Below are positions 33,760 to 55,428 of a DNA stretch of 64,000 nucleotides, piece after piece; the first letter of the stretch is position 1, and every line of letters starts with the position of its first letter. The position numbers were made by a program, and so were the translations under genes. The notes below the pieces were generated by a model, which saw only the letters and a program-made list of their open reading frames with translations, did no database searches and was not told the DNA's origin. The stretch comes from Candidatus Enterousia sp. (GTDB lineage: Bacteria; Pseudomonadota; Alphaproteobacteria; Rs-D84): positions 1,457 to 65,456 of the forward strand of contig JAZNAO010000006.1 of the NCBI GenBank assembly GCA_045586565.1. The letters are read 5' to 3'.

Positions 33760-33760
33760 A

Positions 33761-33995: not shown

Positions 33996-34060
33996 CGCGG
34001 TAATGACAAGAATTAAAAATTCTTGTAAAATGTTATGCAGATTTAAACTTTTATTTAAGT
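33996..34060 (+). repeat. Repeat element copy D.
   Basis: CGCGGTAATGACAAGAATTaaaAATTCTTGTAAAATG...GCAG...AAACTTTTATTTA. The promoter of the Cys-rich gene follows immediately. Confidence 0.65.
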
Positions 34061-34061
34061 A

Positions 34062-34090
34062 TTGATTCAACTTTTCAAAAATGATAAAAT
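34062..34090 (+). promoter_or_regulatory. Sigma70-type promoter of leader L1.
   Basis: TTGATT, 17-nt spacer, TAAAAT. The -10 box sits inside the conserved TGATAAAAT block. Confidence 0.65.
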
Positions 34091-34358
34091 ACATTTGTCG
34101 GTGGGATTTTTCACCGATGGGGTGTGGAAACCCGTTATCTAAGCGTCTATGCACGATTGCATAACGCGCCAATGGCGTGTTTTTTGTGCAGTGTATGGAT
34201 GAAAATTTTTTTCTCCTGATCTTATGTGGTCAGGAGGGCTGCGAATATATTGAATAAGCACACAATTCTTAGATATTGTTTCCAACCTCCTGGCCACCTA
34301 TCTTTTATGGTGGTTTTTGTTTAATTTGCGTATGCAGAACGAAAGGGAGGAAAGTAAT
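34091..34358 (+). promoter_or_regulatory. Conserved structured 5' leader L1 (candidate riboswitch or attenuator).
   Basis: P1 TCGGTG/CACCGA, P2 GGGT/ACCC, hairpin CTCCTGA/TCAGGAG (34213-34237), antiterminator GTGGTCAGGAGG pairing with CCTCCTGGCCAC, terminator CCACC-9nt-GGTGG followed by TTTTT (34294-34318), ribosome-binding site GAAAGGGAGG. Confidence 0.6.
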
Positions 34359-35102
34359 ATGCAAAAATTTTTAAAACTAACCGGCGTATCAGTTTTGGCA
34401 ATCGTTGCCGCAACGGGCGCCAATGCCGCGGGATACACCTGTGAAGAATTGATTGAATACACAGCATGTAATGATGGGTGGTATTTAAACGATGGTGATT
34501 GTATAGAAAGCACAACATGTCCATCGGGCAGTTATTTACGTCCGTTTTGTTCAGTGAGCGATTGTGGTGTGAGTTATGATTCTGAGACCGAAGAATATAC
34601 TTGTTGTGATGGTGATTATGTTGCAAACCTGGAATGCATACAATGCCCATCTGTTGGTCTGACTGACAAAGACGGCAAAGTGGTGTCGGTTAAATCACAG
34701 CCTGGCTCAATGGGTGTTGGTTCGTGCTATATTGACCCGAATGCATATTTCAAGGATAGCACGGGGACATATCATTATAAGTCCAATTGTTCTGTGCGTT
34801 TCTGGGAAACATCCCCAGACACAGAAGAAGAATGTACCAGTCTTGGTTTTGAATGGGTATATACAAGTGGTGAATCAGATTCTTATTATGTTTGTGCGTT
34901 GAACATGCGGATTAGTGAACAGTTGGGTTTAATAAAGACAGAAGAAGAATGTAACGCGGCAGCTGAAAAAATATATGGCTTGGTATGGAAAGATGAAGGA
35001 GATTATTATTATTCCAGATGCGAAACCATAAACTACGAAGAGAGTTACTTTATTTTTAGGGATGAATGGTATGTTTTTGGTGATCCTATTTCTCACTCCT
35101 AA
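34359..35102 (+). CDS. Secreted Cys-rich repeat protein, paralog 1 (248 aa).
   Basis: Signal peptide MQKFLKLTGVSVLAIVAATGANA. AGYTCEELIEYTACNDGWYLNDGDCI is near-identical to paralog 3. CxxCP..GLTDKDG module; 20 Cys. Confidence 0.8.
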   Translation: MQKFLKLTGVSVLAIVAATGANAAGYTCEELIEYTACNDGWYLNDGDCIESTTCPSGSYLRPFCSVSDCGVSYDSETEEYTCCDGDYVANLECIQCPSVGLTDKDGKVVSVKSQPGSMGVGSCYIDPNAYFKDSTGTYHYKSNCSVRFWETSPDTEEECTSLGFEWVYTSGESDSYYVCALNMRISEQLGLIKTEEECNAAAEKIYGLVWKDEGDYYYSRCETINYEESYFIFRDEWYVFGDPISHS

Positions 35103-35107
35103 AATAA

Positions 35108-35134
35108 AAAATCCCGCAATCGCGGGATTTTTTA
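35108..35134. terminator. Bidirectional terminator between the Cys-rich gene and convergent fabZ.
   Basis: ATCCCGCAATCGCGGGAT followed by TTTTT. Confidence 0.7.
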
Positions 35135-35569
35135 AACTGCCTTTTGTAATACTGCGGTAAAGGTTGATTCTGCGACCTTTTTACCACCCACAAATGCAAT
35201 TCCGTGGAATTTATACAATTTCATCTTGGTCATCAATAATTCAACATGCAATTCCAACTTATCGCCCGGGTGCACCATATGTGAAAACTTAATCTTTTCC
35301 ATTGTGGTAAAATACCCCAATGTATCTTTGCGTTCCGCCTCTGACAGACGCGCAAACGCAACATAGCATGCGGTCTGGGCCAACGCTTCGATTTGCAATA
35401 CGCCCGGCATAATCGGATTGCCAGGAAAATGGCCCGTGCACCAGAATTCGTCATCGCGGACATATTTTACACCAACCGCACTGGTGTCATTATATTCACG
35501 AATTTCGTCCACCAACCGCATGTCCCCGCGATGTGGTATAACTTTTTCGATTTCTTTTGCATCAATCAT
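35132..35569 (-). CDS. fabZ: 3-hydroxyacyl-ACP dehydratase FabZ.
   Basis: Hot-dog fold with HFPGNPIMPGVL motif; 145 aa. Confidence 0.9.
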   Translation of the reverse strand: MIDAKEIEKVIPHRGDMRLVDEIREYNDTSAVGVKYVRDDEFWCTGHFPGNPIMPGVLQIEALAQTACYVAFARLSEAERKDTLGYFTTMEKIKFSHMVHPGDKLELHVELLMTKMKLYKFHGIAFVGGKKVAESTFTAVLQKAV

Positions 35570-35742
35570 TCGATATTCCTTTCCTATTATTTTTGTTTAG
35601 ACAACATCCAACTTTCAATTATAATTTTTGTCTGTGGTTTTAACAATTGATTATCAGTTTGCATTTTTTGCAAAATGCGTTTTGGTGGATAAATATAAAT
35701 AATATTTTTATTTCTATTGTCTATCATTTTTGTGTGAATTGC

Positions 35743-36786
35743 TTATTTCTTGGCGTTTTTACGCAACCATGCATAGTGACGCATAAATTCGGTTCCCGGA
35801 CCCGCCGGATATCCCATATGTGATTCGCCGTCTGGGATATTGCGGAAAACACCACTGTTCGCACCAACAGATGCGTCGTTTCCAATCTTAACACCGTTTG
35901 CGACACCAACATGCCCACCCAATAACGCGCGGTCACCAACAACCACACCACCCGCCAGGCCAACGCCACTGGCCAAGAAACATTCTTTACCAATAACAAC
36001 CCCGTGTGCAATCTGGCACAGGTTATCAATTTTTGTTCCGTCGCCAATTGTTGTGTCTGTCATTGCGCCACGATCAATACATGTGTTTGCGCCGACCGAT
36101 ACGCGTTCGCCAATAACAACGCGCCCAACATGTGGGATAAATATATTTTTACCATTTTGGCGTGTGTATCCAAAACCGTCTTTGCCAATAACTGCATTTG
36201 CATTTATCACAGAATCTGCGCCAATTGTGGCGTTTTCAATATGCGCGCCACTGTGCACGATTGTATTGCGCCCCAAAACAACATTGCGTCCGATAAATGC
36301 GCCTGGATAAATCTTGACCCCGGGTTCAATCGCCGCGCCACGTTCAATTGTTGCAAATTGCCCGACATAATTTGTGCGTTTTTTGCGGAAAAATACACCA
36401 CGGTCCAGGTGTGCGTTCTTGCTGATACCAAAGCGTGGTTTTTCGCGATAAATTTCACCCAAAATTTTAACGATATTTCCGCGTGGGCTGTCTGTAATCA
36501 ACAGTGTGGCACCCTTTGGCGCATGTTTTGCCATTTCTGGCTGTACCAAAATCACGGTTGCGCGTGTTTTCTGTAAAACTTCAATTGGTAATATTTTGAA
36601 CGCATTGCTGTTTTGTTCTGTGGAATAGAACGCCAATTGCCCCGCACGCGCATCGGCAATCGGCGCCACCCCGCGCACAGGTTCGCTTGCATTACCGCGT
36701 AATTCCAGACCAAATTTGGTCGCCAAAGCCCCGGCTGTGGTTTTGTTTGCCGCCGGTGAAAACAAAGATCTTAATATTTTCATCAT
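35743..36786 (-). CDS. lpxD: UDP-3-O-acylglucosamine N-acyltransferase LpxD.
   Basis: Left-handed beta-helix hexapeptide repeats with an LpxD-type N-terminal domain. Start placed at MMKILRS; the ORF-track start at 36825 adds 13 unlikely residues. Confidence 0.9.
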
Positions 36787-36967
36787 AGTGAACCGATTAT
36801 AGATAAAAAAAATTCTATATTCCACAATTTTATGACATGTATTTTTTTCTTGTAATTTTGCGATTCGTATATATAATAAAAGACGTTCTTAAATAAAATT
36901 TTAAGGGCGGGGTTGAAAAACCCCGCTCTTTCAGTAAGACATACAATAAATGCAAAGGAGTATATAA

Positions 36968-38506
36968 ATGTCTTTCGTATCGATGCCTCGTCAAGACTTG
37001 TTGTTGGCTATTGATTCTTTGGCCACAGAAAAGATGATTGATCGTGAAATTGTTATTGAATCATTAGAGGCGGCAATCGCTAAAATTGCAAAGCACAAAT
37101 ATGGCGAAGAGTTTAATATCACTGCTGAAATTGATCGCAAAAATGGTGCAATTTATGTAAAACGTTTGTTTGATGTAATTGAATCGCCTGAATCTGTTGG
37201 TGAAGAATATGATGCAAACACAATGTTGACTGTGGCCCAGGCAAAAAAATACTCACAAAATCCATCTGTGGGCGATGTTGTCGAAGATTCTTTGCCAGAA
37301 CCAGAATTTGGTCGTATGGCATTCCAAACGGCAAAGCAAATTATGACTGCGCGCGTTCGTGATGCAGAAAAAGGTCGTCAATATGAAGAATTCAAAGATA
37401 ATATCGGTGATATCATCAGCGGTGTTGTTAAACGCATCGAATTTGGTAATGTTTTTGTTGATATCAATGGCAAGGCCGAAGGTTATATCAAAAGCACAGA
37501 ATTGATTCCTGGTGAACGCTTGGCGGTTGGCGATCGTGTTCGTGCATTGATTATGGATGTTGCACGTTCTAATACAGGTCCCCAGATTTTCTTGACGCGC
37601 ACACATCCAATGTTTATGGAAAAATTGTTTGTCCAAGAAGTGCCTGAAATTTACGAAGGTATCATTAAAATTAAATCTGTATCACGTGCGCCGGGGTCCC
37701 ACGCAAAGATTGCGGTTGAAACCAGCGACCCATCAATTGATGCGGTTGGTATGACTGTTGGTATAAAGGGAACACGTATTCAACCTGTTATCAACGAATG
37801 CCACGGTGAAAAGATTGACGTTATATTGTATTCCGAAGACCCTGCTGTATTTATCGTAAATGCGATGCAGCCTGCCAAGGTCGCTAAAATCATCGTTGAC
37901 GAAGATACACGCAGTGCGGCTGTTGTTGTAAATGAAGATCAACAGTCTTTGGCAATTGGTCGTCGTGGTCAGAATGTTCGTCTGGCGTCTCAATTGACGG
38001 GATGGAATATTGATGTTATGAACGAAACCGAAGAACAAGAACGTCGTGCCAAAGAATTCAAAGAAAAGACAGAACTGTTTATCGGTGGTCTGGACGTTGA
38101 TGAAATGATTGCGCAATTATTGATTACCGAAGGTTTCCGCACAATCGAAGAAATCGCATTTGTTGATATTTCTGAATTGGAAGAAATCGAAGGCTTTAAC
38201 CCAGAATTGGCGGCAGAATTACAGAAACGCGCCAAAGATTATCTGAACAAAATCGAACAAGATTATATTGATAATGGTCATGCGCTGGGTATGTCTGATG
38301 ATTTGTTGAAATTTGACTTTATCAAGCGTCCAACAATCATGAAACTGGGCCAGGCCGGCATCAAATCATTGGAAGATTTGGCAGATTTGGCCACAGATGA
38401 ATTGATTGAAATCTTGGGCGAAGATACAATGTCTAATCGTTTGGCAGGGCGTGTTATTATGAAGGCACGTGAAATCGCATACGATATTAAACAGGACGAC
38501 GAATAA
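36968..38506 (+). CDS. nusA: Transcription termination/antitermination factor NusA.
   Basis: N-terminal domain, S1 domain, two KH domains and C-terminal acidic repeats. Confidence 0.95.
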   Translation: MSFVSMPRQDLLLAIDSLATEKMIDREIVIESLEAAIAKIAKHKYGEEFNITAEIDRKNGAIYVKRLFDVIESPESVGEEYDANTMLTVAQAKKYSQNPSVGDVVEDSLPEPEFGRMAFQTAKQIMTARVRDAEKGRQYEEFKDNIGDIISGVVKRIEFGNVFVDINGKAEGYIKSTELIPGERLAVGDRVRALIMDVARSNTGPQIFLTRTHPMFMEKLFVQEVPEIYEGIIKIKSVSRAPGSHAKIAVETSDPSIDAVGMTVGIKGTRIQPVINECHGEKIDVILYSEDPAVFIVNAMQPAKVAKIIVDEDTRSAAVVVNEDQQSLAIGRRGQNVRLASQLTGWNIDVMNETEEQERRAKEFKEKTELFIGGLDVDEMIAQLLITEGFRTIEEIAFVDISELEEIEGFNPELAAELQKRAKDYLNKIEQDYIDNGHALGMSDDLLKFDFIKRPTIMKLGQAGIKSLEDLADLATDELIEILGEDTMSNRLAGRVIMKAREIAYDIKQDDE

Positions 38507-38581
38507 AATGTTATCAGTGCAAGGTTCATAATTTGAACTTTGCACTTTGAACTTTTAACATTATGAACGGAGTGAATTTAT

Positions 38582-40990
38582 ATGGCAACATTAACACTTG
38601 GAAAATCTGTAACAACTGACGCGGTCCGCAGCAAGAAAGGCGACGCGGTGTTCGTTGAACGCCGTCGTCGTGTTGTTGCACCAAACAGCAAGGAATTACG
38701 CGATGAACCTGTTGTGCCATCTGCACCCAAAAATGCTGCAGATGAAAAATTGCGTGCTGTTTTGGCGGCGGCCAAGGCGCGTGAAGAAGAACGCAAAGCA
38801 CGCGAAGCCGAAGAGGCAGCTGCGGCTGCTGCGCGTGCCGCAGAAATTGAACGTGAAAACCGCGAATATGAACAGGTTAAATCACAATTGGCGGCCCGCG
38901 AAAACGCAGGTGCTAATGTGAACGATGTTGCCGAAGAACCTGTGGCGCAACGCAACACAAAACATTCTGCCACGCCAAAGGTGTTTGTGAACAATGCTGT
39001 CGCAGGACAGGGGCGTAAAAATCGCAATAATGACGATGAAGATACGCACCATAATAAATTCAACAATTCAAAAAAAGATTTTAAAAAGTCTGGTAAAATT
39101 CATTTGCATGATATTGTTATGGGCGATGGTGATGATGACGATGAAATTGGGATTCGTGGTGCAAATCGTCGCCGTTCCGAAGCGTCTTTAAAACGTTTTC
39201 GTGAAAAAGCACGTGCAATATTTTCTGCCCCACAAAAGGTTGAACATGTTGTCACATTGGGTGATACGATTACGGTCAAAGACCTGGCGGCGGCAATGGC
39301 AGAAAAGGTTGGTAATGTTATCAAGAAACTGATGGAAATGGGAATGATGGTGTCTGTGAATCAGTCTATTGATGCGGATACTGCTGAACTTATCGCGGGT
39401 GAATTTGGTGCGACCGTTAAACGTGTTGATGTCAAACCATATGCAGACCAACTTGAACGCGAACCGAATCCAGAAAATCTGACACCACGTGCGCCAGTTG
39501 TGACGGTTGTGGGACACGTTGATCACGGCAAGACATCATTGCTGGACGCGTTCCGTAATGCTAATGTTGCGGCCGGCGAAGCAGGGGGTATTACCCAACA
39601 CGTATCATCGTATGAGGTTAAAACAAAATCTGGCGCAATGATTACGTTCTTGGATACACCGGGTCACGAAACATTTACAGCAATGCGCGCACGTGGTGCC
39701 CAGATGGCAGATATTGTTGTTTTGGTTGTTGCGGCAAACGATTCCATTATGCCACAAACAATCGAAGCAATAAATCACATCCGTGCGGCGAACGTTCCGT
39801 TTATAGTTGCAATCAACAAAATCGATTTACCCGAAGCAAATGCGTTGCGCGTAAAAACAGACCTGTTGCAACAAGAAGTTCAGGTTGAAGAAATGGGTGG
39901 TGATGTTCAATGTGTTGAAATTTCTGCAACCAAAAAAATCGGTTTGGATAAACTGGAAGAAGCGATTTTATTGCAGGCCGAAATGATGGAATTAAAAGCA
40001 GATGCACAAATGCCTGCGGTTGCATATGTGGTCGAAGCCAAACAAGAAAAAGGTTTGGGGGCGGTTGCAACTGTTTTAATGCGCCAAGGTACATTGAAAA
40101 TTGGTGATGTGTTTGTGGTTGGTGAAACATTTGGTCGTGTTCGCGGATTGATAAATTCGTCTGGTGAACGCGTGAAATCTGTGCGCCCTGGTCAGCCTGC
40201 GGTTGTTTTGGGATTGAATACCGTGCCAGGGGCTGGGGATGAATTGCGTGTCATGGAAACCGAAGCGCAAACACGTGAAGTGGCGGCATATCGTGCCCAG
40301 AAAACTAAAGACAAGGCAAACGCTGTTAAACGTTCGTCTTTGGAAGAATTATTCGCCAAACGTGACGAAACGAAAAAATTGATTTTGCCAATAATCTTGC
40401 GTGCAGATGTTCAAGGTTCTGTCGAAGCAATTACAGATATGGTCAAAGAAATAAATACTGATAAGGTCGGTGTAGAAGTTCTGTCGTCTGGTGTTGGTCA
40501 AATTACCGAAGGTGATATACGTTTGGCAACGGCATCTGGGGCTGTAATTATTGCGTTTAACGTCCGTGCAGATTCTGTTGTGCGTGATATGGCACGCAGT
40601 AATGGTGTTGATATTCGCTATCACAGTGTTGTATATCGTATCACAGATGAAATCAAAGAAATACTGTCTGGCAAATTGGCGCCTGAAAAACATGAAACGT
40701 TTATTGGGTATGCCGATGTTATCGCGTTGTTTACTGTGGGCAAGGGTATACGTGTTGCCGGATGTCGCATGACCGAAGGTGTAATCAAGAAAGATGCGTT
40801 CGTACGTTTGTTGCGTAATAATGTCGTTATATATGACGGCAAAATCGGACAACTGCGTCGTGAAAAGAACGAAGTCAAAGAAGTGTCTGGTGGCGTTGAA
40901 TTCGGTATGTCTTTTGACAAGTATAATGACTTGAAAGAAGGCGACCGCGTTGAATGTTACGAGGTTGAAGAAGTTCGTGCACAAATATAG
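38582..40990 (+). CDS. infB: Translation initiation factor IF-2.
   Basis: GTPase motifs [14 protein letters not shown] and NKID. Lys/Ala/Glu-rich N-terminal region. Confidence 0.95.
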
Positions 40991-41005
40991 CCCAAGGATA
41001 AATAA

Positions 41006-41602
41006 ATGTTAAAAAAAACCACAGTCGTTTTGTTCGATTTTGATGGCACATTATCATGTCGCGATTCAAATGTTGCATTTGCAAAATATTGTTTCCGCCA
41101 CAGTATTCGTCCATGGTTTTTTCTGCCGCTGATGGGTGTATGCGCGATATCGCGTTTGTTTGTGCCTGATGGTATTTGGTGGCGTGAAAACATTCGTCGT
41201 TTTTTGACACCGCAAATGGTTAAAAAATTTGCGCCTGGATTTATCAAACAGCATAAATTGGAACGATTTGGGTGGGCCAAAGAACGTGTGCAATCTGAAC
41301 GTGATGCTGGTCACAAGGTTTTAATGGTTTCGGCCAGTCCTGATTACCTGTTGCGTCCATTGGTTCGCGATATGAAATTCGATGCGGTATTTTGTTCTGA
41401 AATGGACAAGCAGAAACCATGGAAATACGAATTTTTATGCTGGGGTAAAAACAAGGTTTTGATTATGGACGAATGGGCCAAAGAAAATAAAATTATTCCA
41501 CATGTAATTCGTGCATATTCGGACAGCAAATCAGATTTACCAATGATGGAAATCGCCGAAGAACAGGTCTGGATTGATCCGAAAACAGGTATGCGAAAAT
41601 AA
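41006..41602 (+). CDS. HAD-superfamily (subfamily IB-like) hydrolase.
   Basis: Motif I FDFDGTLS; motif IV YSDSKSDLPMM. Confidence 0.6.
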   Translation: MLKKTTVVLFDFDGTLSCRDSNVAFAKYCFRHSIRPWFFLPLMGVCAISRLFVPDGIWWRENIRRFLTPQMVKKFAPGFIKQHKLERFGWAKERVQSERDAGHKVLMVSASPDYLLRPLVRDMKFDAVFCSEMDKQKPWKYEFLCWGKNKVLIMDEWAKENKIIPHVIRAYSDSKSDLPMMEIAEEQVWIDPKTGMRK

Positions 41603-41642
41603 ACCCAGTGTTTTAATTATTTGTTCGTGTTAAAGTGTTTCT

Positions 41643-41900
41643 ATGGCATTGATAGAAACACTTTTTGATTTATTGGTGGCATCTGCGGGTGCGATTGTCG
41701 GTGTGTTGTTTGGATTGTTCCTGGAACGTAAACGGCGTCGCCAAATGGCAAATCAATTGATTGTCAGTCGTCAAACATTGGATAAAGTAAAATTGGAAAA
41801 CGAACGATTATTGGAAACAATACGCGAAAAAGAAAATCTGATTTTACAAATGGAAATGCAAATTCTGGGACGGCGTTCGCGCGCACGAAAAAAGAAATAA
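41643..41900 (+). CDS. Small membrane-anchored coiled-coil protein (LapA-like), hypothetical.
   Basis: One N-terminal transmembrane segment followed by a basic coiled-coil; 85 aa. Confidence 0.35.
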   Translation: MALIETLFDLLVASAGAIVGVLFGLFLERKRRRQMANQLIVSRQTLDKVKLENERLLETIREKENLILQMEMQILGRRSRARKKK

Positions 41901-41929
41901 TTGCAAATATATATTTTTTGTCTTAAAAT

Positions 41930-43984: not shown

Positions 43985-44052
43985 TTCGTATAATACCATT
44001 TGTTTATTCAAAGTTTTGTGATAGAATGTTTGCATAAGGAAAGGATTTTATT

Positions 44053-46315: not shown

Positions 46316-46319
46316 TGCT

Positions 46320-47363: not shown

Positions 47364-47364
47364 A

Positions 47365-47397
47365 AAAAAATTCCGGTGTTGCCGGAATTTTTTATTT
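47365..47397 (+). terminator. Intrinsic terminator after murG.
   Basis: TTCCGGTGTTGCCGGAA followed by a T tract. Confidence 0.7.
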
Positions 47398-47452
47398 TCT
47401 GCTTGCGTGCGATTCGTCATTTGTTCTATGATGCAAATGGAAGGAAAGGAAA

Positions 47453-48733
47453 ATGCGTCATATTACAATCAGTATATTGTCTGCACTGGTTACTGTGCCT
47501 GCGTTTGCAGCGGCGGGGTTGCCAGTGGTAAACATTGCGTCTGGCGGTGTTTCTGCGCGCAGTGCGTTTGGCGAATCGGTTCCTGTGGAACGCGGTGTTT
47601 CTGTTGCGCCTGTGGTGCAAAATATTGCAACGCGTCCTGTTGTTGCGCGTGTTTCGACAATAAAACCTGTGGCGCCATCTGTTGATACTGGTGATACAAT
47701 TATTTCGTCAAACGATGTCTTGATGCCTCGTCGCCCCAGTGCTGATTTGTGGGCCAAGAATGATGTGGCGTTACGTATGCCAACACCTGATGAATTTTCC
47801 GTTATTCGGACTGATACAGTTTTACCAGAGGAGAGACTGGACCAACAATCATCACAACAATTTGCAATCAGTTCGCCGTCACCTGATGTTGTATCACGTG
47901 AATCGGTCGCGATGTCTGAAATTGATAATCAGATTGTGCGCTTGGCGCAATTGCAGCAACGTGCCGATGACAGTGTCCGTAATGTTTCGCCGCGTGTAAT
48001 TGCGGCACCGATTGCGGAAATGAAAACCGTCGCACCAACCGCAATCGCATCAAATGAATCTGCAAATGTATCGTCACCTGTATCGTTACGTCGTATGGTT
48101 GTTCCGATGGAAACGCCAGATGTTGTGGTGCGCAGTGTTGAAAAAAATATTTCGCCACGTATTGCATCTGTCCGTGACGATATGACAAAAATGACCCCGG
48201 CCCAGTTGCGCCAGGCGTTCAGAAAAACTTTTTTGTCAGAAAACAAGCATTTGTCCACATATTCTGTTGACGATCGATTTGATGTGGCCAGTGATATGTC
48301 GTCGTCTATCGAAGGCTTTACTGCGCGTCGTAATTTGTCTGAAACCGGTGGCATTCGCGCATTAGAAATCAAAATAAATTTCCGCAACGATGATTCTTCA
48401 TTGTCGCGTGATAATTATAATCTGTTATCAGAATACGCGGGTATTGTCATAAATGATCCAAAGCGTGCGATTCAGATTGCAATACCACAAGGTATGACTG
48501 TGGGAACGGATACGCGTAAATTGGCAGCGCGTCGTTTGGCAATTGTTGAACAAGTCTTGACAGATAACGGTGTATCAAAACAGCGTATTGTTCCTGTATT
48601 GTCATCGCGTAATGAACAGGGTTTTGTTCTGCGTATTATATCCAGTGATGAATACGAAACATTGACCCAGCAAAAACACGATATTTTCGGTGACACGGTT
48701 GGGAAAAAGACTTATAAAAGTATGTCGTGGTAG
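47453..48733 (+). CDS. Hypothetical secreted protein with a possible OmpA-like C-terminal domain.
   Basis: Signal peptide MRHITISILSALVTVPAFAAA. Ser/Val-rich middle region. C-terminal ...AARRLAIVEQVLTDNGVSKQRI resembles OmpA/MotB peptidoglycan-binding domains. Confidence 0.45.
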   Translation: MRHITISILSALVTVPAFAAAGLPVVNIASGGVSARSAFGESVPVERGVSVAPVVQNIATRPVVARVSTIKPVAPSVDTGDTIISSNDVLMPRRPSADLWAKNDVALRMPTPDEFSVIRTDTVLPEERLDQQSSQQFAISSPSPDVVSRESVAMSEIDNQIVRLAQLQQRADDSVRNVSPRVIAAPIAEMKTVAPTAIASNESANVSSPVSLRRMVVPMETPDVVVRSVEKNISPRIASVRDDMTKMTPAQLRQAFRKTFLSENKHLSTYSVDDRFDVASDMSSSIEGFTARRNLSETGGIRALEIKINFRNDDSSLSRDNYNLLSEYAGIVINDPKRAIQIAIPQGMTVGTDTRKLAARRLAIVEQVLTDNGVSKQRIVPVLSSRNEQGFVLRIISSDEYETLTQQKHDIFGDTVGKKTYKSMSW

Positions 48734-49449
48734 AATTAGTTCGTGTATTTATTGAATTTTTGTTTCCGCCGGCGTGTCCACTGTGTGATACGCCGGTATC
48801 AATTCATGGTGAATTATGCGGCGATTGTTGGTCTGCGATGAGTTGGATATCTGGTGCGCATTGTGCGTGTTGTGGTTATCCATTTCCATTGGAATTAGAT
48901 TTGCCGGATGGTGCCATGTGTCCGGTATGCGCATCTGGGAAAAATGAGTTGGATTGGATTCGTTCTGCGTGCGTATATGATGACGTTTCACGTTCGGCAA
49001 TGTTGCCGTTTAAACATGGTGGTCGTGTCGGTTATGCGCGATTTATGTCGCGTGCAATGATTTGGGCATTGCGCGATGTAAATGTTGATGCAGATATTGT
49101 TATGCCGGTGCCATTGGCGCGTGGTCGATTGTTTAAACGCGGTTATAACCAGGCAACATTATTGGCGCGCCCAATTGCGCGTGCGTTGGGTGTAAAAATG
49201 GATGTTGATTCTGTGCGTCGTAAATATCGCCCAGATATGGGGCATAAAAACGCACGTCAACGTGCAGAAAATATCCATGGTGTGTTTACTGTGGTAAATC
49301 CAGATGTGATACGTGGTCGGAAAATTTTGTTGGTTGATGATGTTATGACAACAGGTGCAACATTTGCAGAATTGCGTCGCGTTTTAATGCGTGCAGGTGC
49401 GACAGCGGTATACGGCGTGACATTTTGTCGCGTTGCACACGCGGTTTAG
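48727..49449 (+). CDS. comF: ComF-family phosphoribosyltransferase.
   Basis: N-terminal double CxxC zinc finger (CPLCD...CGDCW, CACCGY...CPVC). C-terminal PRTase motif VLLVDDVMTTGAT. Confidence 0.8.
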   Translation: MVELVRVFIEFLFPPACPLCDTPVSIHGELCGDCWSAMSWISGAHCACCGYPFPLELDLPDGAMCPVCASGKNELDWIRSACVYDDVSRSAMLPFKHGGRVGYARFMSRAMIWALRDVNVDADIVMPVPLARGRLFKRGYNQATLLARPIARALGVKMDVDSVRRKYRPDMGHKNARQRAENIHGVFTVVNPDVIRGRKILLVDDVMTTGATFAELRRVLMRAGATAVYGVTFCRVAHAV

Positions 49450-49889
49450 TTATATGTGTATTCTGATGTAAGTCTTACGATTCTGTTTTTTAACAATTGC
49501 ATTTCTTGTTGTATAACGCGTTTGGAACACGCATCAAAGATATTGATAATTTCCTGTTCGCGTGGCGTAAATATTCTGCGGTTTGCAGATACCGTCATAT
49601 GTGCAATATCTTCTTCATATGCGGTGTCTTCTTCATATATCATAATCGTATATAATACATCGGTGGATCCGTTTGGGGTTTCAAAGAAATCGCGCGCCAT
49701 TTCTATATATTTGTCGCCCACGATGCATATTTTGTATATAATTGCACCTTGTTCATGCAGTGTACTGATAACACTGCTGTCGATCAGCGAATGAATCATC
49801 GGTATTGCATCTTCGGATAATGGTAAAAAATCTTTGTCTATTGTCGCCATGTTGGTTTTAATGATAGATACAAAAAAAACAGTTGTCAA
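49446..49889 (-). CDS. Hypothetical protein (147 aa).
   Basis: ORF only. A LuxR-like C-terminus was considered but the alignment is poor. Confidence 0.3.
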   Translation of the reverse strand: MTTVFFVSIIKTNMATIDKDFLPLSEDAIPMIHSLIDSSVISTLHEQGAIIYKICIVGDKYIEMARDFFETPNGSTDVLYTIMIYEEDTAYEEDIAHMTVSANRRIFTPREQEIINIFDACSKRVIQQEMQLLKNRIVRLTSEYTYN

Positions 49890-50001
49890 GTTTTTGTTTT
49901 GTGACCAATATACATCGTGTTTTTGTCTGATTTTCTTGAATTCTGAATTTAATCTGATACGATAAATGTCAGGTTATTTTTTACAAAACAGGACAACAGA
50001 T

Positions 50002-52404
50002 ATGAATATAGAATTGGGTAAAAATATTGCACCGCGTGAAATAGAAACCAGAATCCAAGAATTTTGGGATAAAAATGATTTCTGGGCAAATGATGTCCAT
50101 TCGGATAAGACACCATTTTGCATTATGATGCCACCGCCAAATGTTACGGGTAATTTGCATATGGGGCATGCGTTGGATAATGTTTTAACAGATATTATGT
50201 GCCGTTACAAACGTATGTCTGGCTTTGACGTTTTATGGCAGCCTGGAACCGACCACGCATCAATTGCCACCCAATTGTTGGTTGAACGCGACTTGTCAAA
50301 GCGTGGTATAAATCCGCATGCATTATCATTACAGGAAAAACTGGATTATGCCTGGGCGTGGAAGGCGGACAAAGGTGGCCAGATTTTAAATCAGTTACAC
50401 ATTTTGGGTGTAACACCGGTATGGAAACGCGAAAGATTTACGATGGACGATGGCTTGTCCAATGCGGTGACAAAACTGTTTGTAAAAATGTATAACGAAG
50501 GTTTGATTTATCGTGAAAAGCGTCTTGTAAACTGGTGCCCAAAACAGCAAACATCTGTTTCTGACCTGGAAGTTGAAACCCGTGATGAGCACGGCAAGTT
50601 TTATTACTTTAATTACCAATTGGTTGATGGCGGTGTGGTTGAAATTGCGACAACCCGTCCGGAAACACTGTTTGGCGACCAGGCGATTGCGGTTCATCCA
50701 GAAAACGAGAAGTTAAATCATCTTATTGGGCGCAAGGCGATTATTCCATTGACTGATATTGAAATTCCAATTATCGGTGATGAACACGCGGACCCAGACA
50801 AGGGGACAGGTGCGGTTAAAATTACACCGGCGCATGACTTTGACGACTGGGAAGTTGGCGTTCGTCATAATTTGACACCGGTTTGTATTTTGACCCCAGA
50901 TGCGAAATTAAATGACAACCCGGTGGTTCCAGAAAAATACCGTGGCATGGACCGATATGCAGCACGTGCCGCAATTGTGGCTGATATTGATGCGGCGGGC
51001 CTGTTGGTAAAAATCGAAGACAAGGTTATCCCAACACCGTATTCTGAACGTGCCCAGGTTCCTGTAGAGCCATATTTAACAGACCAGTGGTTTGTTGATG
51101 CGGAAAAGTTGGCAATACCTGCGATAAAGGCAGTCGAAGATGGTAAAATCAAATTCTTGCCAGAACACAGATATAACCTGTTTATGGCGTGGATGAAAAA
51201 CATTCGTCCATGGACTATTTCGCGTCAGTTATGGTGGGGACATCATATCCCGGCGTGGTATGATGCGGATGGTAATGTTTATGTTGCCGAAACCGAAGAA
51301 GCGGCGATTGCGCAATCTGGTGGCAAAACATTGACCCGTGACCCAGATGTATTGGATACGTGGTTTTCGTCTGGTCTGTGGCCATTTTCAACATTGGGTT
51401 GGCCTGAACAGACATTGGAATTAGCAAAATATTATCCCACAGACTTACTATACACCGGCGCAGATATTATCTTTTTCTGGGTTGCGCGTATGATAATGAT
51501 GGGATTGTATGTGATGGGCGACGTTCCGTTCCGGACGGTAAATTTCCACGGTCTGGTTCGTGATTCAAAGGGGCAAAAGATGTCCAAGACCAAGGGAAAT
51601 GGCACAGACCCATTGACTGCGGTTGATAAATTTAGTTCGGACGCCTTGCGTTACTGGATTGCGACCGCGCCAATTGGTACCGATATTCGTTATTCTGATG
51701 ACGAAGTTAAACGTGGTTCAAAACTGCTGACTAAATTATGGAATGCGTCGAAATATGTGTTGATGAATTTATCAGATTTTGAACCAGAAACTGCGAAACA
51801 AATTCCTGTATCAGAACGCTTTATCGAAGACAGATGGGTATTATCTGAATTGAACAAAGCGATTGCAGAAACCAGAAAGCATTTGGATAAATACGATAAC
51901 TATAATTCACGTGCTGCAATTGATACGTTCTTTTGGGATATATTCTGCGACCAGTATCTGGAATTTATCAAAGACCGTTTTTGGGCGCCTGAAAAATACA
52001 GTGCGGAATCTAAATTATCTGCCCAGTGGACATTATATACGGTATTGCGTGCGATAATTGGTCTGTATGCGCCGTTTATCCCATTCCTGACCGAAGAATT
52101 ATGGCAGAAAATTTATAAACCATTCGAAGGTGGCGAAACATTGCATCTGACGTTATATCCGTCTGTTCAATCAGAATATGATACAGATGTTTCAACGATG
52201 GATGTTGCGCTGGAAATTTTGAAAAATATCCGTGGCCTGCGCACAGAACGTAAGGTTGGCAACGGTGCAAAACTGGAAACGTTGACGATTCCATCGGATA
52301 CGCCGGATGTTTTGCATGGCTTGATAAAATCTGCGGCACGTGCAAATGAAATCCTTTTGGGTGACGCATTGGATTTTGTTGTCGCCCAGAATGTTCAAGG
52401 ATAA
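50002..52404 (+). CDS. valS: Valine--tRNA ligase (short, ~800 aa, as found in reduced alphaproteobacterial genomes).
   Basis: HIGH-type motif PNVTGNLHMGHA and KMSKS-type motif KMSKTKGN. Start at MNIELGKN (50002). Confidence 0.85.
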   Translation: MNIELGKNIAPREIETRIQEFWDKNDFWANDVHSDKTPFCIMMPPPNVTGNLHMGHALDNVLTDIMCRYKRMSGFDVLWQPGTDHASIATQLLVERDLSKRGINPHALSLQEKLDYAWAWKADKGGQILNQLHILGVTPVWKRERFTMDDGLSNAVTKLFVKMYNEGLIYREKRLVNWCPKQQTSVSDLEVETRDEHGKFYYFNYQLVDGGVVEIATTRPETLFGDQAIAVHPENEKLNHLIGRKAIIPLTDIEIPIIGDEHADPDKGTGAVKITPAHDFDDWEVGVRHNLTPVCILTPDAKLNDNPVVPEKYRGMDRYAARAAIVADIDAAGLLVKIEDKVIPTPYSERAQVPVEPYLTDQWFVDAEKLAIPAIKAVEDGKIKFLPEHRYNLFMAWMKNIRPWTISRQLWWGHHIPAWYDADGNVYVAETEEAAIAQSGGKTLTRDPDVLDTWFSSGLWPFSTLGWPEQTLELAKYYPTDLLYTGADIIFFWVARMIMMGLYVMGDVPFRTVNFHGLVRDSKGQKMSKTKGNGTDPLTAVDKFSSDALRYWIATAPIGTDIRYSDDEVKRGSKLLTKLWNASKYVLMNLSDFEPETAKQIPVSERFIEDRWVLSELNKAIAETRKHLDKYDNYNSRAAIDTFFWDIFCDQYLEFIKDRFWAPEKYSAESKLSAQWTLYTVLRAIIGLYAPFIPFLTEELWQKIYKPFEGGETLHLTLYPSVQSEYDTDVSTMDVALEILKNIRGLRTERKVGNGAKLETLTIPSDTPDVLHGLIKSAARANEILLGDALDFVVAQNVQG

Positions 52405-52408
52405 AATC

Positions 52409-53137
52409 ATGGCTGATAAACTGATTGAAAAACGTGTCCTGCAGGCATATCAGTGTGACCGATTTGGTAACGTTCGTCCACTGATTTTGATGAATGAATT
52501 GCAATCTATTGCCGACCGTCATGCAGAAATTTTGGGGTGTGGTCGCACATATTGCCTGGCCAATAATGTTGGTTGGGTTGTGATGTATTACCTGGTCGAT
52601 ATTGTTGAATTACCACGCGAAGGCGAAGAACTGACATTTGCCACGTGGCCATCGTGCCAAGATGCCCTGCGTGCGACACGTGACTTTGAAATTCATGGGT
52701 CTGACGGTCGTTTAATGGTTCGTGCCACGTCCCAGTGGATATTGATTGATATGTCGCGTCGTCGGCCTGTGCCATTGGCAAACCATCTGTCGCCAGACGT
52801 TGTTGTGCCACACCGTGCATATGGTTGTGCATTTGAAAAGTTTCCGGACTTTGAAACGACCAAGACACATGTTATGAAATGTCGCTTTGATGACATTGAT
52901 GTGAATCAGCATATAAATAATGCGGTTTATGCGGTCTGGGCGACCGAAAGTGTCGGATATAAATATCGCACAGAACACAAATTGAAAAAGATAGATATTT
53001 GTTTTAAAAAGGAAGTGAGTCTGGACATCCCAGAAATTTGCATTGATGTTGCGATTGATGGTCTGGTGTCACGTCACAAGATTCGCAGTGGCGACACCGA
53101 ACACGCGGTTGTCATTTGTCATTGGGAACAAATATAA
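52409..53137 (+). CDS. Acyl-ACP thioesterase-like hot-dog protein.
   Basis: Length and organisation resemble acyl-ACP thioesterases (PF01643). AAGGA ribosome-binding site before ATG 52409, immediately after the valS stop. Confidence 0.5.
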   Translation: MADKLIEKRVLQAYQCDRFGNVRPLILMNELQSIADRHAEILGCGRTYCLANNVGWVVMYYLVDIVELPREGEELTFATWPSCQDALRATRDFEIHGSDGRLMVRATSQWILIDMSRRRPVPLANHLSPDVVVPHRAYGCAFEKFPDFETTKTHVMKCRFDDIDVNQHINNAVYAVWATESVGYKYRTEHKLKKIDICFKKEVSLDIPEICIDVAIDGLVSRHKIRSGDTEHAVVICHWEQI

Positions 53138-53163
53138 AATCCCCGCCACCCGGCGGTTTTTTC
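53138..53163 (+). terminator. Intrinsic terminator.
   Basis: CCGCCACCCGGCGG followed by TTTTTT. Confidence 0.7.
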
Positions 53164-53205
53164 AGCGACAAATAATAATGATACTATGGACTGGATTGCC
53201 ACGTT

Positions 53206-53282
53206 CGTTTCACTCCCTCGCGATGACAAGAATCACAGATTCTTGTAAAAATAGTTGTATAACTAAACTTTTATTTATCGCG
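53206..53282 (+). repeat. Repeat element copy E.
   Basis: CGTTTCAC..CGCGATGACAAGAATCacagGATTCTTGTAAAAATAG...AAACTTTTATTTATCGCG, with terminal CGCGAT/ATCGCG inverted repeats. The promoter of leader L2 follows directly. Confidence 0.7.
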
Positions 53283-53298
53283 GTATTCTATTTACCTG

Positions 53299-53327
53299 TT
53301 GACCTAAAATTTTAATATTGATAAAAT
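53299..53327 (+). promoter_or_regulatory. Sigma70-type promoter of leader L2.
   Basis: TTGACC, 17-nt spacer, TAAAAT. Confidence 0.7.
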
Positions 53328-53567
53328 CCTTTTGTCGGTGAGATTTTTCACCGATGGGGTGTAACGACCCGTGCGATAGCGTCTGTGCGATATTTGCGCC
53401 CAGATGAAATTACTCCTGATCTATTCGTGGTCAGGAGGGCTTGTGAATAATGCGTCCGCGCAAAATCAACAGCACAATTCTATCGATTGTCGTTAACCTC
53501 CTGACCACCTGACTTATAAAACGGTGGTTTTTATTTGATAAAACGCAAAGGAAAGGGAGAGTTTTAT
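53328..53567 (+). promoter_or_regulatory. Conserved structured 5' leader L2, the divergent copy.
   Basis: Same helix set as L1 and L3 with different loops. P1 TCGGTG/CACCGA, hairpin CTCCTGA-tctattcg-TGGTCAGGAG, perfect 12-bp antiterminator GTGGTCAGGAGG/CCTCCTGACCAC, terminator CCACC...GGTGG followed by TTTTT (53504-53534), ribosome-binding site GGAAAGGGAG. Confidence 0.6.
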
Positions 53568-55040
53568 ATGAAAAAGTTTTTTGGTTACACTGTATCAATA
53601 ATGGCAATTTTTGTGGCAAATAATGCATCCGCGGCAGACGGATATACATGTGAAACCAGTCGTGTGTTTACATCGTGTGGTGCAGGTTGGTATTTACAGG
53701 AATCTGTTGCGGGCTCTGGCGAAGGTACGTGTTATGAATGTCCAACCAACTTTAAGAGTGGGGCTGCTGGGATTGTTGGCAAAGATAACTGTGTGGGAAA
53801 TATTGCCGCGGGATATTATTATGACAAGGAAAATGAGACGCGAAAAACATGTCCACAAGGTGCGTCGTATTTTTGCCCAGGGGTATCGAATATTACATAT
53901 GGTAATGCCAGTCGTTCGACAACAACAACCCCGTGTTATGACCCGTCTAATCCAAATGCGATGACGGCAGGATTAAAGAATGTAATTGGTTATAGTAATA
54001 TAACGCGCCTAGAATTGGGTTCATATGGTATTCCAGAAGGTGTTCAGGTAATTACATGGAAACCTGTTGTGGTAAATAGTGGCGGGGCCAGTTCGTATGA
54101 ACATTGTGCCTTTGATTGGACTCAATCAACAAATAATTATAAAATACAGATAATCCCACAAAACAGCCTTACAGGGTCTGGGGTGGCCACTTTAAACATA
54201 ACATCATGCAGCAGTGGACAATTATCGTCGGTTCGAAATGTTAAATTTAATGAGATTGATATTACAACTGGTGGCAGTCCCTTGTTCTCAACAGGATGTG
54301 CCGGCTGTGGCGAAGGTAAGTATTTAAAGTCTGGTGCAACGGAGTGCAGTGCTTGTAACATTCATGATGCGTTGGGCTTGGATACCAGTGTGACAGCAAT
54401 ATGGCAATCTGGTCTGGCTGAAAGCACTGTGGGCTCTTGGGTTTGTCCGTATCGCTTTGAAACGCTTCCTGTTGAAAATGGTGTTGCCACGGGTATATCG
54501 TGCTCGATGACCGATGTCGCCAATGGTACATACAGTTGTCGCTTGTCCCTGGATATAGGACAACTAGGGTGCGATGCGGGTTATATATTGCAAAATGCGG
54601 ACATGACATCCGAAACATTGATTAACTGTGGTGGCCAGGATAATTCGTATGGACAGTCTGTAAATGCTGATACTGATCTTGCAATTGGGCTAGAAATTTT
54701 GACACCGTCAAACTTAAAATGCGTGCCGACACGTATGGGGTGCTATCAGCCAAACGGTCAGGATGAATTTGCAGAAATTACAAACGCTGCGGACTTGATT
54801 ACAGCATTGACTGGCAAGCCTTGTGGCGATGGTAATTATTGTGACAAATCTGCATCTGCGGAACAGACTGCGTGTCCTGCGGTTAAATTGTTCATGCGCG
54901 AAGATGGCAGTGCGGTCAACATGATGTCGGCCGATTATGCAGACGATGCGGCAGACTGTTATGTTCCAGCCAACCCAGATATCTTGTACAAGGACGGAAA
55001 TGGAAACCTGTTCTATCTGGAAAGCAAGTGTGGCTACTAA
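53568..55040 (+). CDS. Secreted Cys-rich repeat protein, paralog 2 (490 aa).
   Basis: Signal peptide MKKFFGYTVSIMAIFVANNASA, then DGYTCE... About 40 Cys in CxxC / C-x-C-P-x-G-x-Y patterns. Confidence 0.8.
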   Translation: MKKFFGYTVSIMAIFVANNASAADGYTCETSRVFTSCGAGWYLQESVAGSGEGTCYECPTNFKSGAAGIVGKDNCVGNIAAGYYYDKENETRKTCPQGASYFCPGVSNITYGNASRSTTTTPCYDPSNPNAMTAGLKNVIGYSNITRLELGSYGIPEGVQVITWKPVVVNSGGASSYEHCAFDWTQSTNNYKIQIIPQNSLTGSGVATLNITSCSSGQLSSVRNVKFNEIDITTGGSPLFSTGCAGCGEGKYLKSGATECSACNIHDALGLDTSVTAIWQSGLAESTVGSWVCPYRFETLPVENGVATGISCSMTDVANGTYSCRLSLDIGQLGCDAGYILQNADMTSETLINCGGQDNSYGQSVNADTDLAIGLEILTPSNLKCVPTRMGCYQPNGQDEFAEITNAADLITALTGKPCGDGNYCDKSASAEQTACPAVKLFMREDGSAVNMMSADYADDAADCYVPANPDILYKDGNGNLFYLESKCGY

Positions 55041-55041
55041 A

Positions 55042-55068
55042 AAATCCCCCTTTTGGGGGATTTTTTTG
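55042..55068 (+). terminator. Intrinsic terminator.
   Basis: AAAATCCCCCTTTTGGGGGATTTTTTT. Confidence 0.75.
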
Positions 55069-55127
55069 AGATACGAGATATGAGACATGTGACAGGAATA
55101 TTTATCAATGTGTCCTTATTTTATTTA

Positions 55128-55156
55128 TTGACGTAAATTCTTAAAACTGATAAAAT
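55128..55156 (+). promoter_or_regulatory. Sigma70-type promoter of leader L3.
   Basis: TTGACG, 17-nt spacer, TAAAAT. Confidence 0.7.
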
Positions 55157-55428
55157 TCTTTTGTCGATGGGATTTTTCATCGATGGGGTGTCAAGACCCG
55201 TTTCATTGGCGTTCATGCACGATTGCATAACACGCCATGTGGCGTATTTTTTATGCGATATGTGTATGGGTGATAAATTACTCCTGACCCGTGGTCAGGA
55301 GGGCTGTGAATATATTGAATAAGCACACAATTCCAATGATTGTCTTGAACCTCCTGGCCACCTTTTGTGAAAAACGGTGGTTTTTTGTTTATTTTGGCAA
55401 ACAAAACAAAGGAAAAGGAGAGTTTGTT
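55157..55428 (+). promoter_or_regulatory. Conserved structured 5' leader L3.
   Basis: Near-identical to L1. P1 carries a compensatory change (TCGATG/CATCGA versus TCGGTG/CACCGA). Terminator CCACC...GGTGG followed by TTTTTT (55349-55377); ribosome-binding site GGAAAAGGAG. Confidence 0.6.

Follow-up and report, generated by a model that had tools for sequence, protein, structure and literature searches.

Leader RNAs of the S-box type are built around a four-way junction with a closing helix, and their anti-antiterminator lies within the aptamer. In adenine ON riboswitches of the pbuE type there is a three-way junction, and helix P1 is the antiterminator. Here we describe a leader element with a likeness to both, present in a stretch of 64,000 nucleotides (nt) from Candidatus Enterousia sp. 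(contig JAZNAO010000006.1 of assembly GCA_045586565.1, positions 1,457 to 65,456 of the forward strand). This whole stretch is referred to as the window. The element is found in the intergenic regions 34062-34358, 53299-53567 and 55128-55428, termed L1, L2 and L3. It is a conserved, covarying RNA in which one strand has two alternative partners, and we consider it rather probable that it acts in cis as a switch of transcription attenuation between two folds that exclude each other, under the control of an effector.

A preliminary description of this DNA had pointed to the common architecture of the three regions. This is borne out by their mutual alignment, which shows 78% column identity, and by an nhmmer search with a family profile, which finds these three copies and no others in the window, each of them on the + strand (E values of 6e-37, 5e-29 and 9e-38). 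The parts in common are a promoter, several hairpins, an overlap of antiterminator and terminator, and a ribosome-binding site (RBS). A DNA pattern made from the conserved core is found at no fewer than 116 loci, i.e. at least 116, in species-representative genomes. The search patterns fixed the blocks GGGC, GAATA..GAATAA, and AACCTCC or CTCC. A profile search added 15 further copies in the same loci that the pattern had missed, and metagenomes provided ~50 further confirmed copies.

Conserved helices of the leader RNA

Single-sequence folds of the three leaders are far more stable than those of shuffled sequences (z = -6.1 for L1, -4.2 for L2 and -5.4 for L3). At the family level, helices were assessed in an unfitted MAFFT alignment of 116 distinct copies, termed A2, with the helices P1, P2, Ha, Hb, V, P3, P4, Px and T. 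In the tested helices 86.9% of the cells are paired, versus 70.5% when partners are shuffled and 38-48% when partners are slid. The covariation score is 0.477, compared with 0.21 for shuffled and ~0.10 for slid partners, and both-sided changes are found at 38 of the 48 pairs. Covariation thus exceeds both controls, and the original proposal that the shared helices go beyond chance and reflect selection on RNA structure is upheld. Two helices were treated separately. P3 is misaligned in A2 between two subtypes and therefore was analysed by direct parsing; Hb is too variable in length for MAFFT and therefore was examined by an alignment-free comparison of cognate and non-cognate partners.

G.U pairs constitute 7.3% of the cells in the family helices, and therefore selection acts on the RNA read from the + strand. 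The G.U share is only 0.7% in Ha and 1.5% in the antiterminator helix (AT), which are almost purely Watson-Crick, versus 8-13% in the other helices.

P1 displays the compensation first noticed within the window, TCGGTG/CACCGA versus TCGATG/CATCGA, and across the family both-sided changes occur at all seven of its pairs. It is paired in 89.5% of cells in A2, and native P1 has an energy of -8.8 kcal/mol versus -2.7 kcal/mol for chimeric P1. P2 varies at pair 27:40 (GC 75, GU 22, AU 14) and has the stem variants GAGG/CCUC, GAAG/CUUC and GAGA/UCUC. It had been presented as a hairpin with three different loops. The hairpin stands, but the loops are not free, as they constitute the 5′ strand of a long-range helix, Ha. 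The partners of Ha lie ~150 nt apart and are perfectly compensated: GGAAAC/GTTTCC in L1, AACGAC/GTCGTT in L2 and CAAGAC/GTCTTG in L3. In the family 97.6% of Ha cells are paired, four of five pairs are altered on both sides, and there are 29 Ha variants.

A second long-range helix, Hb, pairs ATCTAAG with CTTAGAT in L1, CGATAG with CTATCG in L2 and TCATTGG with CCAATGA in L3. It is represented by 92 distinct sequences (7-mers). The cognate Hb duplex has an energy of -7.4 kcal/mol versus -1.9 kcal/mol for non-cognate partners, and in 88% of the copies the true partner scores among the best 5%. The structural model given earlier holds only in part, since Ha and Hb, as well as the stem P4 and the hairpin Px, were missing from it. 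P4 is paired in 99.7% of cells, with all three pairs altered on both sides. Px is paired in 96.7% of cells, and its third pair is AU in 58 and UA in 54 copies. The terminator helix T is paired in 94% of cells in A2. L2 had been said to keep every helix. This is not the case: L2 is without the long V extension, owing to a deletion of ~34 nt, and carries a hairpin insertion in the P4 loop.

The P4 loop has the form GAAUA-N4-(G)AAUAA. The N4 segment is freely variable, and in L2 and locus L073 a hairpin is found in its place; therefore the two GAAUA-like strands represent a conserved internal loop. It is plausible that a protein or a ligand binds at this internal loop, or that it makes a tertiary contact. 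The conserved blocks of the family are GGGGYGU, GGAGGGC, GAAUA..AAUAA and AACCUCC, several of which were fixed by the search pattern. The leader displays a trait of riboswitches, namely a conserved and covarying multi-helix domain with invariant junction or loop nucleotides, joined to an expression platform.

The minimum free energy (MFE) single-sequence folds of L1-L3 contain a further helix, Hx (GGGG:CCUCC), which is not adopted here. Covariation lends Hx no support, since the search pattern had fixed its partner strand, and the helix is broken in the U144-A193 subfamily, where G29 remains G.

Overlap of antiterminator and terminator

The hairpin CTCCTGA...TCAGGAG, now part of P3, was correctly recognized in the preliminary description; its loops are 10, 11 and 7 nt long on a 7-bp stem and not 10, 8 and 6 nt. 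The alternative 12-bp pairing GTGGTCAGGAGG:CCTCCTGRCCAC, perfect in L2 and with one G.U in L1 and L3, was also correctly read, as was the CCACC...GGTGG-T5 terminator, which is present in all three leaders. In L1-L3, P3 has 9 bp, AT 12 bp and the terminator stem 7 bp.

The same choice of partners is found throughout the family. The P3 3′ arm can pair with the P3 5′ arm (median 8 bp) or with the tail that follows AACC (median 10 bp, range 9-13 bp), and AT is longer than P3 in 107 of 117 copies. AT is paired in 99.7% of cells, and RNAalifold predicts P1, AT and the terminator from the alignment alone. The arm and the tail change jointly, with UGAC, AACC, UGCC and AGCC versions, as well as CCCG in two loci (L079, L217) and CUUCC in another (L159).

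The alternative AT pairing is proven by covariation at pair 144:193, which belongs to AT only and is absent from P3. The pair is G144:C193 in its G-C form. A metagenome scan limited to copies with a nucleotide other than G at position 144 provided 37 profile-confirmed leaders, and position 193 pairs with position 144 in all 37 (U-A in 25, U.G in eight, A-U in three and C-G in one). Compensation at 144:193 is also found in the genome loci L045, L032 and L061.

Terminators were counted by an explicit search for a stem of 5-11 bp with at least five T within the next 8 nt. A hairpin with its U-run is found in 116 of 117 copies. The terminator 5′ arm starts 5-6 nt into the tail, and 3-6 basal nt are common to the terminator and AT in most copies. 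The leader accordingly has the traits of an attenuator: a hairpin with a U-run upstream of an open reading frame (ORF), and an alternative, covarying helix that shares nucleotides of the terminator stem. The pairing of AT, the compensation at 144:193 and the near-constant terminator argue, at the sequence level, for the anti-antiterminator/antiterminator/terminator logic that had been suggested from the three window copies.

Two loci, L018 and L047, have a tail without a TTTT run after it, and both leaders precede ABC-transporter genes (ABC_membrane + ABC_tran) instead of genes for secreted proteins. The AT 3′ strand starts with ACCUCCU (34286-34292, 53497-53503 and 55350-55356), a sequence identical to the anti-Shine-Dalgarno end of 16S rRNA, and the partner arm (34231-34237 in L1, and correspondingly in the others) has a perfect Shine-Dalgarno (SD) sequence, AGGAGG.

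A proposed attenuation switch

The unit would be a monocistronic cassette that consists of a sigma-70-type promoter, a structured 5′ leader of ~220 nt, an RBS and a gene. In the proposed OFF fold, the long-range helices Ha and Hb would close a junction that carries the hairpins V, P3 and P4. P3 (CUCCUGAC/GUCAGGAG) would conceal the antiterminator strand, and the tail CCUCCUGACCAC would thereby be free to form the terminator hairpin with its U-run, ~25-60 nt before the start codon. RNA polymerase would terminate at this leader hairpin. In the ON fold, the P3 3′ arm (GGUCAGGAGG) would pair with the tail, and the resulting AT of 9-13 bp would take the basal 3-6 nt of the terminator stem. Within AT, P4 and the local hairpin Px would complete a three-way junction, and P2 would form locally upstream. 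An effector, which may be a small molecule or an RNA-binding protein, would shift the balance between OFF and ON. The helices on which this scheme is built, their covariation and their overlaps are demonstrated by the alignments.

Nearest-neighbour calculations favour OFF over ON in 111 of 112 copies (median difference -13.7 kcal/mol), and a difference of -7.3 kcal/mol in favour of OFF already exists in transcripts that have not yet reached the terminator 3′ arm. The OFF/ON energies are -78.4/-67.3 kcal/mol for L1, -63.5/-54.6 kcal/mol for L2 and -79.1/-67.6 kcal/mol for L3. On these values the leader would terminate transcription by default. For the same reason the effector would most likely be one that promotes the ON fold and read-through, a direction to which we give a slight preference. 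Stabilization of the ON junction by the effector would be the simplest route to open the gene.

The P2 loop holds the Ha 5′ strand and the Px loop holds the Hb 3′ strand, usually without spare nucleotides. When MFE structures are constrained to the ON fold by enforcing AT, both Px and P2 are found in 85 of 112 copies. In these models, the presence of Px and P2 favours two exclusive nested folds, without settling the matter.

Several considerations weigh against a switch of this kind. P2+Ha and Px+Hb could coexist as a single double pseudoknot; the Px loop is complementary over its full length to the Hb 5′ strand, which is reminiscent of a kissing-type contact. The energy models omit tertiary contacts and pseudoknots. 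Two large subtypes account for much of the covariation between arm and tail, and possibly few evolutionary events are involved. As the search patterns fixed several blocks, block conservation is partly imposed and family diversity is under-sampled. Transcription start, termination and read-through are all predicted events, and the direction of regulation is uncertain. The gene context of the family reveals no ligand candidate and no common metabolic theme.

The same helices might be read as a classical OFF-type metabolite riboswitch. The junction closed by Ha and Hb, with V, P3 and P4 and with P2 and Px as pseudoknots, would then be the ligand-bound aptamer. The ligand would lock P3 and lead to the terminator; without ligand the antiterminator would form and the gene would be read. 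Such a topology is that of S-box-type leaders, and all of these helices covary. There are conserved unpaired junction blocks (GGGGYGU, GGC, GAAUA/AAUAA and an A-rich linker), and P2 and Ha together would be arranged as in a canonical H-type pseudoknot whose loop 1 is 2 nt long. However, the Px loop mostly lacks linkers on the two sides of Hb (74 of 109 copies have link5 = 0 and 106 of 109 have link3 = 0), and therefore Px and Hb would be hard to form together. In addition, the OFF fold is predicted to be 7-14 kcal/mol more stable even without a ligand, and the gene set points to no metabolite. An OFF-type riboswitch thus appears unlikely, and the attenuation switch with two exclusive folds is the reading that is preferred here.

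Other explanations of the element

The element could be a stand-alone gene for a trans-acting small RNA (sRNA), with a promoter, an RNA of ~220 nt and a terminator, whose position before a gene is incidental or whose read-through is leaky. A strong promoter of its own and a terminator that looks efficient would fit such a gene, and the terminator fold is the predicted default. Terminated riboswitch transcripts can act in trans in other bacteria. However, a same-strand ORF with an SD sequence lies downstream in 110 of 124 copies, and most of the others are at contig ends. The start codon is usually found 20-60 nt past the U-run, a gap that we judge too short for a second promoter. Furthermore, a conserved and covarying antiterminator that overlaps the terminator would be purposeless in a plain sRNA gene, which makes this explanation improbable.

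A constitutive structural leader that does not switch, such as an mRNA-stabilizing 5′ structure or a processive-antitermination element, is to be considered also; the alternative pairing would then arise incidentally from CUCC/GGAG tracts that recur. A single fold, in the form of a compact double pseudoknot, is possible and would suit such a leader. It is difficult to reconcile with covariation at the AT-only pair 144:193, with the stricter conservation of AT relative to P3 and with the terminator overlap, which is kept in 116 of 117 copies; we regard it as quite improbable.

At the translated level, ribosome-mediated attenuation by a leader peptide might sense Cys-tRNA through a small ORF at ATGGGGTGT (MGC...), and L1-L3 all carry an ORF that starts with MGC and has 2-3 Cys codons. 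This is rejected as very improbable, as start codon, peptide length, Cys and SD are not conserved: only 68 of the 117 copies have the ATG, the peptides vary in length from 6 to 69 amino acids, 18 of 84 peptides have no Cys, an SD-like 4-mer is found upstream in only 13 of 117 copies, and the start triplet sits within the P1/P2 stems. A repeat that functions only at the DNA level (such as a promoter cassette that has been duplicated, or a site of recombination or phase variation) would fit the multiple copies before variable surface-protein genes and the partly conserved upstream DNA of L1 and L2 (family D7), but is set aside as highly improbable, since helix sequences diverge freely with pairing kept (92 Hb and 29 Ha variants), the 7.3% of G.U cells would be A.C mismatches on the other strand, and the element invariably points the same way with respect to gene and U-run.

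Novelty and phylogenetic distribution

It had been suggested that the three leaders may represent an undescribed RNA class, and the Rfam scan that had been proposed as a check agrees. With the 4227 covariance models of Rfam 15 at the gathering threshold, no family matches the leaders of the window, where only tRNA is found; 18 other leader loci have only tRNA and tmRNA matches. At an E-value threshold, L3 has no match in Rfam 15 with E<=1, and L1 has sub-threshold matches only. One of these is to sRNA-Xcc1 (RF02221) at 34228-34303, with 32.2 bits against a threshold of 53. The nearly identical stretch of L3 has no such match, and therefore the L1 match is treated as chance and identity with sRNA-Xcc1 is rejected. 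Literature searches on the conserved sequence blocks, on the host order together with riboswitches, and on related topics found no description of the element. Relative to Rfam 15 and the searchable literature, we judge the leader to be a new RNA family of a known mechanistic kind.

The protein encoded behind L3 has more than 150 homologues, all from uncultured Alphaproteobacteria and with many paralogues per genome. The same leader, with different helix sequences, is found upstream of three of these homologues. Among the matches listed, nearly all pattern loci are from metagenome-assembled genomes (MAGs) of animal guts and rumen, labelled 'Alphaproteobacteria bacterium', 'Candidatus Enterousia' or 'Rickettsiales bacterium'. 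The leader hosts belong to the order Rs-D84. Rs-D84 and Ca. Enterousia are uncultured gut and rumen organisms with genomes of <1 Mb that are probably partner-dependent (PMC12306168).

Two other origins were considered. A phage origin of the leader is set aside, as IMG/VR has only three pattern matches. A match on a Candidatus Gracilibacteria contig (L058) has no Ha complement and no nhmmer support and is regarded as a chance match; therefore the family still looks restricted to Alphaproteobacteria of the Rs-D84 type.

Promoters and downstream genes in the family

A sigma-70-like promoter is found at a fixed distance in 88 of 117 copies, with the end of the -10 box 6-7 nt before P1. Promoter and leader thus appear from their sequences to travel as one module. 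The promoters proposed earlier for L1, L2 and L3 are confirmed in all their parts (-35 box, 17-nt spacer, and TAAAAT with a preceding TG; Table 1).

Approximately two thirds of the downstream products have signal-peptide-like N-termini, and most have no Pfam match. The Pfam matches that are found are to Ephrin_rec_like, Flg_new, OMP_b-brl, Opacity, DUF285, PKD, Gly_rich_2 and trypsin. Several small helix-turn-helix (HTH) proteins of the XRE type and two ABC transporters are also encoded downstream. As the products are so varied, the leader is not specific to the Cys-rich family. The notion that it controls a secreted Cys-rich protein family therefore applies to the window, where the products have 5-8% Cys, and not to the whole regulon, which is broader and includes surface, signal-peptide and XRE-type HTH proteins.

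Small XRE-type HTH genes (58-95 amino acids) lie behind the leader in loci L009, L040, L065, L072, L112, L120, L013, L033, L098 and L115. A leader subfamily in which P2 is GAGA/UCUC is found mainly before such genes.

The three cassettes of the window

The positions of the promoters, helices and genes are given in Table 1. The genes had been described as small; their products are instead 247, 490 and 315 amino acids (aa) long. The genes that flank the cassettes encode inositol monophosphatase, FabA/Z, LpxD, NusA, a class I aminoacyl-tRNA synthetase, an acyl-ACP thioesterase and GyrA. The neighbours of each cassette are housekeeping genes, and therefore each cassette is a single-gene unit.

Table 1. 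Window positions of the leader parts and genes of L1, L2 and L3
Feature	Position	Strand	Remarks
L1 promoter	34062-34090	+	TTGATT, 17-nt spacer, TG-extended TAAAAT
L1 P1 hairpin	34097-34118	+	predicted transcript 5′ end; both-sided changes at all 7 pairs
L1 P2 local hairpin GGGG...CCCG	34119-34134	+	loop 34125-34131 TGGAAAC = Ha 5′ strand
L1 Hb 5′ strand ATCTAAG	34137-34143	+	cognate duplex -7.4 kcal/mol, non-cognate partners -1.9 kcal/mol
L1 variable hairpin V	34144-34201	+	contains terminator-like GC hairpin 34163-34181, then T6
L1 P3 hairpin CTCCTGATC...GGTCAGGAG, putative anti-antiterminator	34213-34236	+	9 bp; family median 8 bp
L1 AT 5′ strand GTGGTCAGGAGG	34226-34237	+	overlaps P3 3′ arm
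L1 P4 stem TGC/GCA	34240-34260	+	around conserved GAATATATTGAATAA (34243-34257)
L1 Px hairpin ACAAT...ATTGT	34262-34279	+	loop 34267-34274 = Hb 3′ strand
L1 Ha 3′ strand GTTTCCA	34278-34284	+	
L1 AT 3′ strand CCTCCTGGCCAC	34286-34297	+	12 bp; family median 10 bp
L1 intrinsic terminator GGCCACC-loop-GGTGGTT + T-run	34292-34318	+	5′ arm overlaps antiterminator
L1 RBS AAGGGAGG	34343-34350	+	
L1 gene	34359-35102	+	247 aa, signal peptide, 6.5% Cys
L2 promoter	53299-53327	+	TTGACC, 17-nt spacer, TG-extended TAAAAT
L2 P1; P2	53334-53355; 53356-53371	+	Ha 5′ strand TAACGAC 53362-53368
L2 Hb 5′ strand CGATAG; short V hairpin	53374-53379; 53380-53406	+	long V extension deleted
L2 P3 hairpin + AT 5′ strand	53413-53438	+	AT 5′ strand 53427-53438
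L2 P4	53441-53472	+	hairpin insertion 53451-53462 between GAATA and AAATCAA loop halves
L2 Px	53474-53490	+	Hb 3′ strand 53479-53485; Ha 3′ strand GTCGTTA 53489-53495
L2 AT 3′ strand CCTCCTGACCAC	53497-53508	+	with terminator and T-run, 53497-53532
L2 terminator GACCACC...GGTGGTT + T-run	53503-53529	+	
L2 gene	53568-55040	+	490 aa, signal peptide, 5.3% Cys
L3 promoter	55128-55156	+	TTGACG, 17-nt spacer, TG-extended TAAAAT
L3 P1; P2	55163-55184; 55185-55200	+	Ha 5′ strand TCAAGAC 55191-55197
L3 Hb 5′ strand TCATTGG; long V hairpin	55203-55209; 55210-55272	+	
L3 inner terminator-like hairpin in V	55232-55245	+	then T-run
L3 P3 hairpin + AT 5′ strand	55281-55302	+	AT 5′ strand 55291-55302
L3 P4; Px	from 55305; 55327-55343	+	P4 loop 55308-55322
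L3 Hb 3′ strand; Ha 3′ strand GTCTTGA	55333-55339; 55342-55348	+	
L3 AT 3′ strand CCTCCTGGCCAC	55350-55361	+	
L3 terminator + T-run	55356-55382	+	to 55386
L3 gene	55429-56376	+	315 aa, signal peptide, 7.6% Cys, Pfam Ephrin_rec_like (5e-12)

A second terminator-like GC hairpin followed by T6 is present in V at 34163-34187 (L1) and 55232-55251 (L3), ~70-95 nt into the leader. This inner hairpin occurs in 36 of 117 family copies and is not found in L2. It may be an early stop that releases an RNA of ~95 nt, or a mere structural extension.

Upstream of the -35 box, L1 and L2 share additional sequences. An inverted repeat, GACAAGAAT-N5-ATTCTTGT, followed by AAAA, is found at 34005-34027 and 53225-53247, and a conserved block, CTAAACTTTTATTTA, at ~34044-34058 and ~53264-53278. 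The CTAAACTTTTATTTA block also precedes the homologous leaders in loci L005 and L006. The inverted repeat and the block may be an upstream terminator, an UP element or an operator.

Near-identical terminators of the form AAAATCCCCC-N4-GGGGGATTTTTT are located at gene ends at 9159-9188, 22460-22489, 33758-33787, 35108-35137 and 55041-55070; some of these are readable on either strand. The C-terminal part of the third Cys-rich gene has a tandem 36-nt repeat at 56279-56356, with a 42-nt spacing and 75% identity. The ORFs 61719-62465 and 62469-63212 are adjacent and similar in size and have a 136-nt stretch in common at 71% identity; these are probably tandem paralogues, as judged from this similarity. 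The sole Rfam match in the window is a tRNA gene at 61558-61629 on the - strand.

Possible role in Rs-D84 bacteria

The leader is found before many genes for signal-peptide and surface proteins and before several small regulators, and three copies lie within the 64 kb of the window alone. This makes it a good candidate for the principal regulatory device of the cell surface in these bacteria, and it is probably one of the main control elements for surface and secreted proteins in Rs-D84. A more specific and tentative possibility is that it represents a riboswitch class not described before, with a small signalling molecule or a metabolite of the host or partner as its ligand, which switches on an entire regulon of surface, secreted and XRE-type proteins in bacteria that would be obligately dependent on a partner. 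If so, RNA would stand in for transcription factors lost from the <1 Mb genomes of Rs-D84. More than 150 natural variants of this apparently unannotated and intricate switch with two folds (or double pseudoknot) are available to RNA biology. Its expression platform is complete and readable, and therefore the search for a ligand or protein and in vitro termination assays are feasible without culture of the host.

Relationship to known regulatory leaders

T-box leaders are similar in that a long structured leader has an antiterminator in competition with a terminator. However, the T-box core GGUGGNACCNCG is found in 0 of 117 copies, there is no Rfam T-box match in the window or in 18 other loci, and the downstream genes encode surface, secreted or HTH proteins rather than aminoacyl-tRNA synthetases or amino-acid functions. 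Motif, Rfam search and gene set all speak against T-box identity, which is rejected.

Protein-dependent antitermination systems (BglG/LicT with the ribonucleic antiterminator (RAT), HutP, and the TRAP/PyrR type) also have an antiterminator that overlaps an intrinsic terminator, and the two GAAUA-like strands of the present leader would suit a dimeric RNA-binding protein. The RNA is, however, far larger and more intricate than a RAT hairpin, and the genes are unrelated to phosphotransferase-system (PTS) sugars, his or trp. Riboswitches of the c-di-GMP-I and c-di-GMP-II classes resemble the present family in being multi-copy leaders before genes for secreted, adhesion and surface proteins and for regulators; the architecture differs, and neither class gives an Rfam match.

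The S-box (SAM-I) leaders of Firmicutes share with the Rs-D84 leader a long-range-closed, multi-helix junction in the 5′ leader, strand sharing between anti-antiterminator, antiterminator and intrinsic terminator, and many copies per genome. The present leader differs in its helices and conserved nucleotides, in the absence of an Rfam match and in its host, an alphaproteobacterium of Rs-D84, and it precedes genes for surface and secreted proteins rather than those of a metabolic pathway. In comparison with the pbuE-type adenine riboswitch, it has an extra upstream competitor (P3 with Ha/Hb), is much larger and is without the purine-riboswitch core. The likeness to pbuE lies in the proposed ON fold, a three-way junction of AT, P4 and Px whose closing helix would sequester the 5′ part of the terminator. 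By analogy, this junction matches the logic of an effector-stabilized antiterminator.

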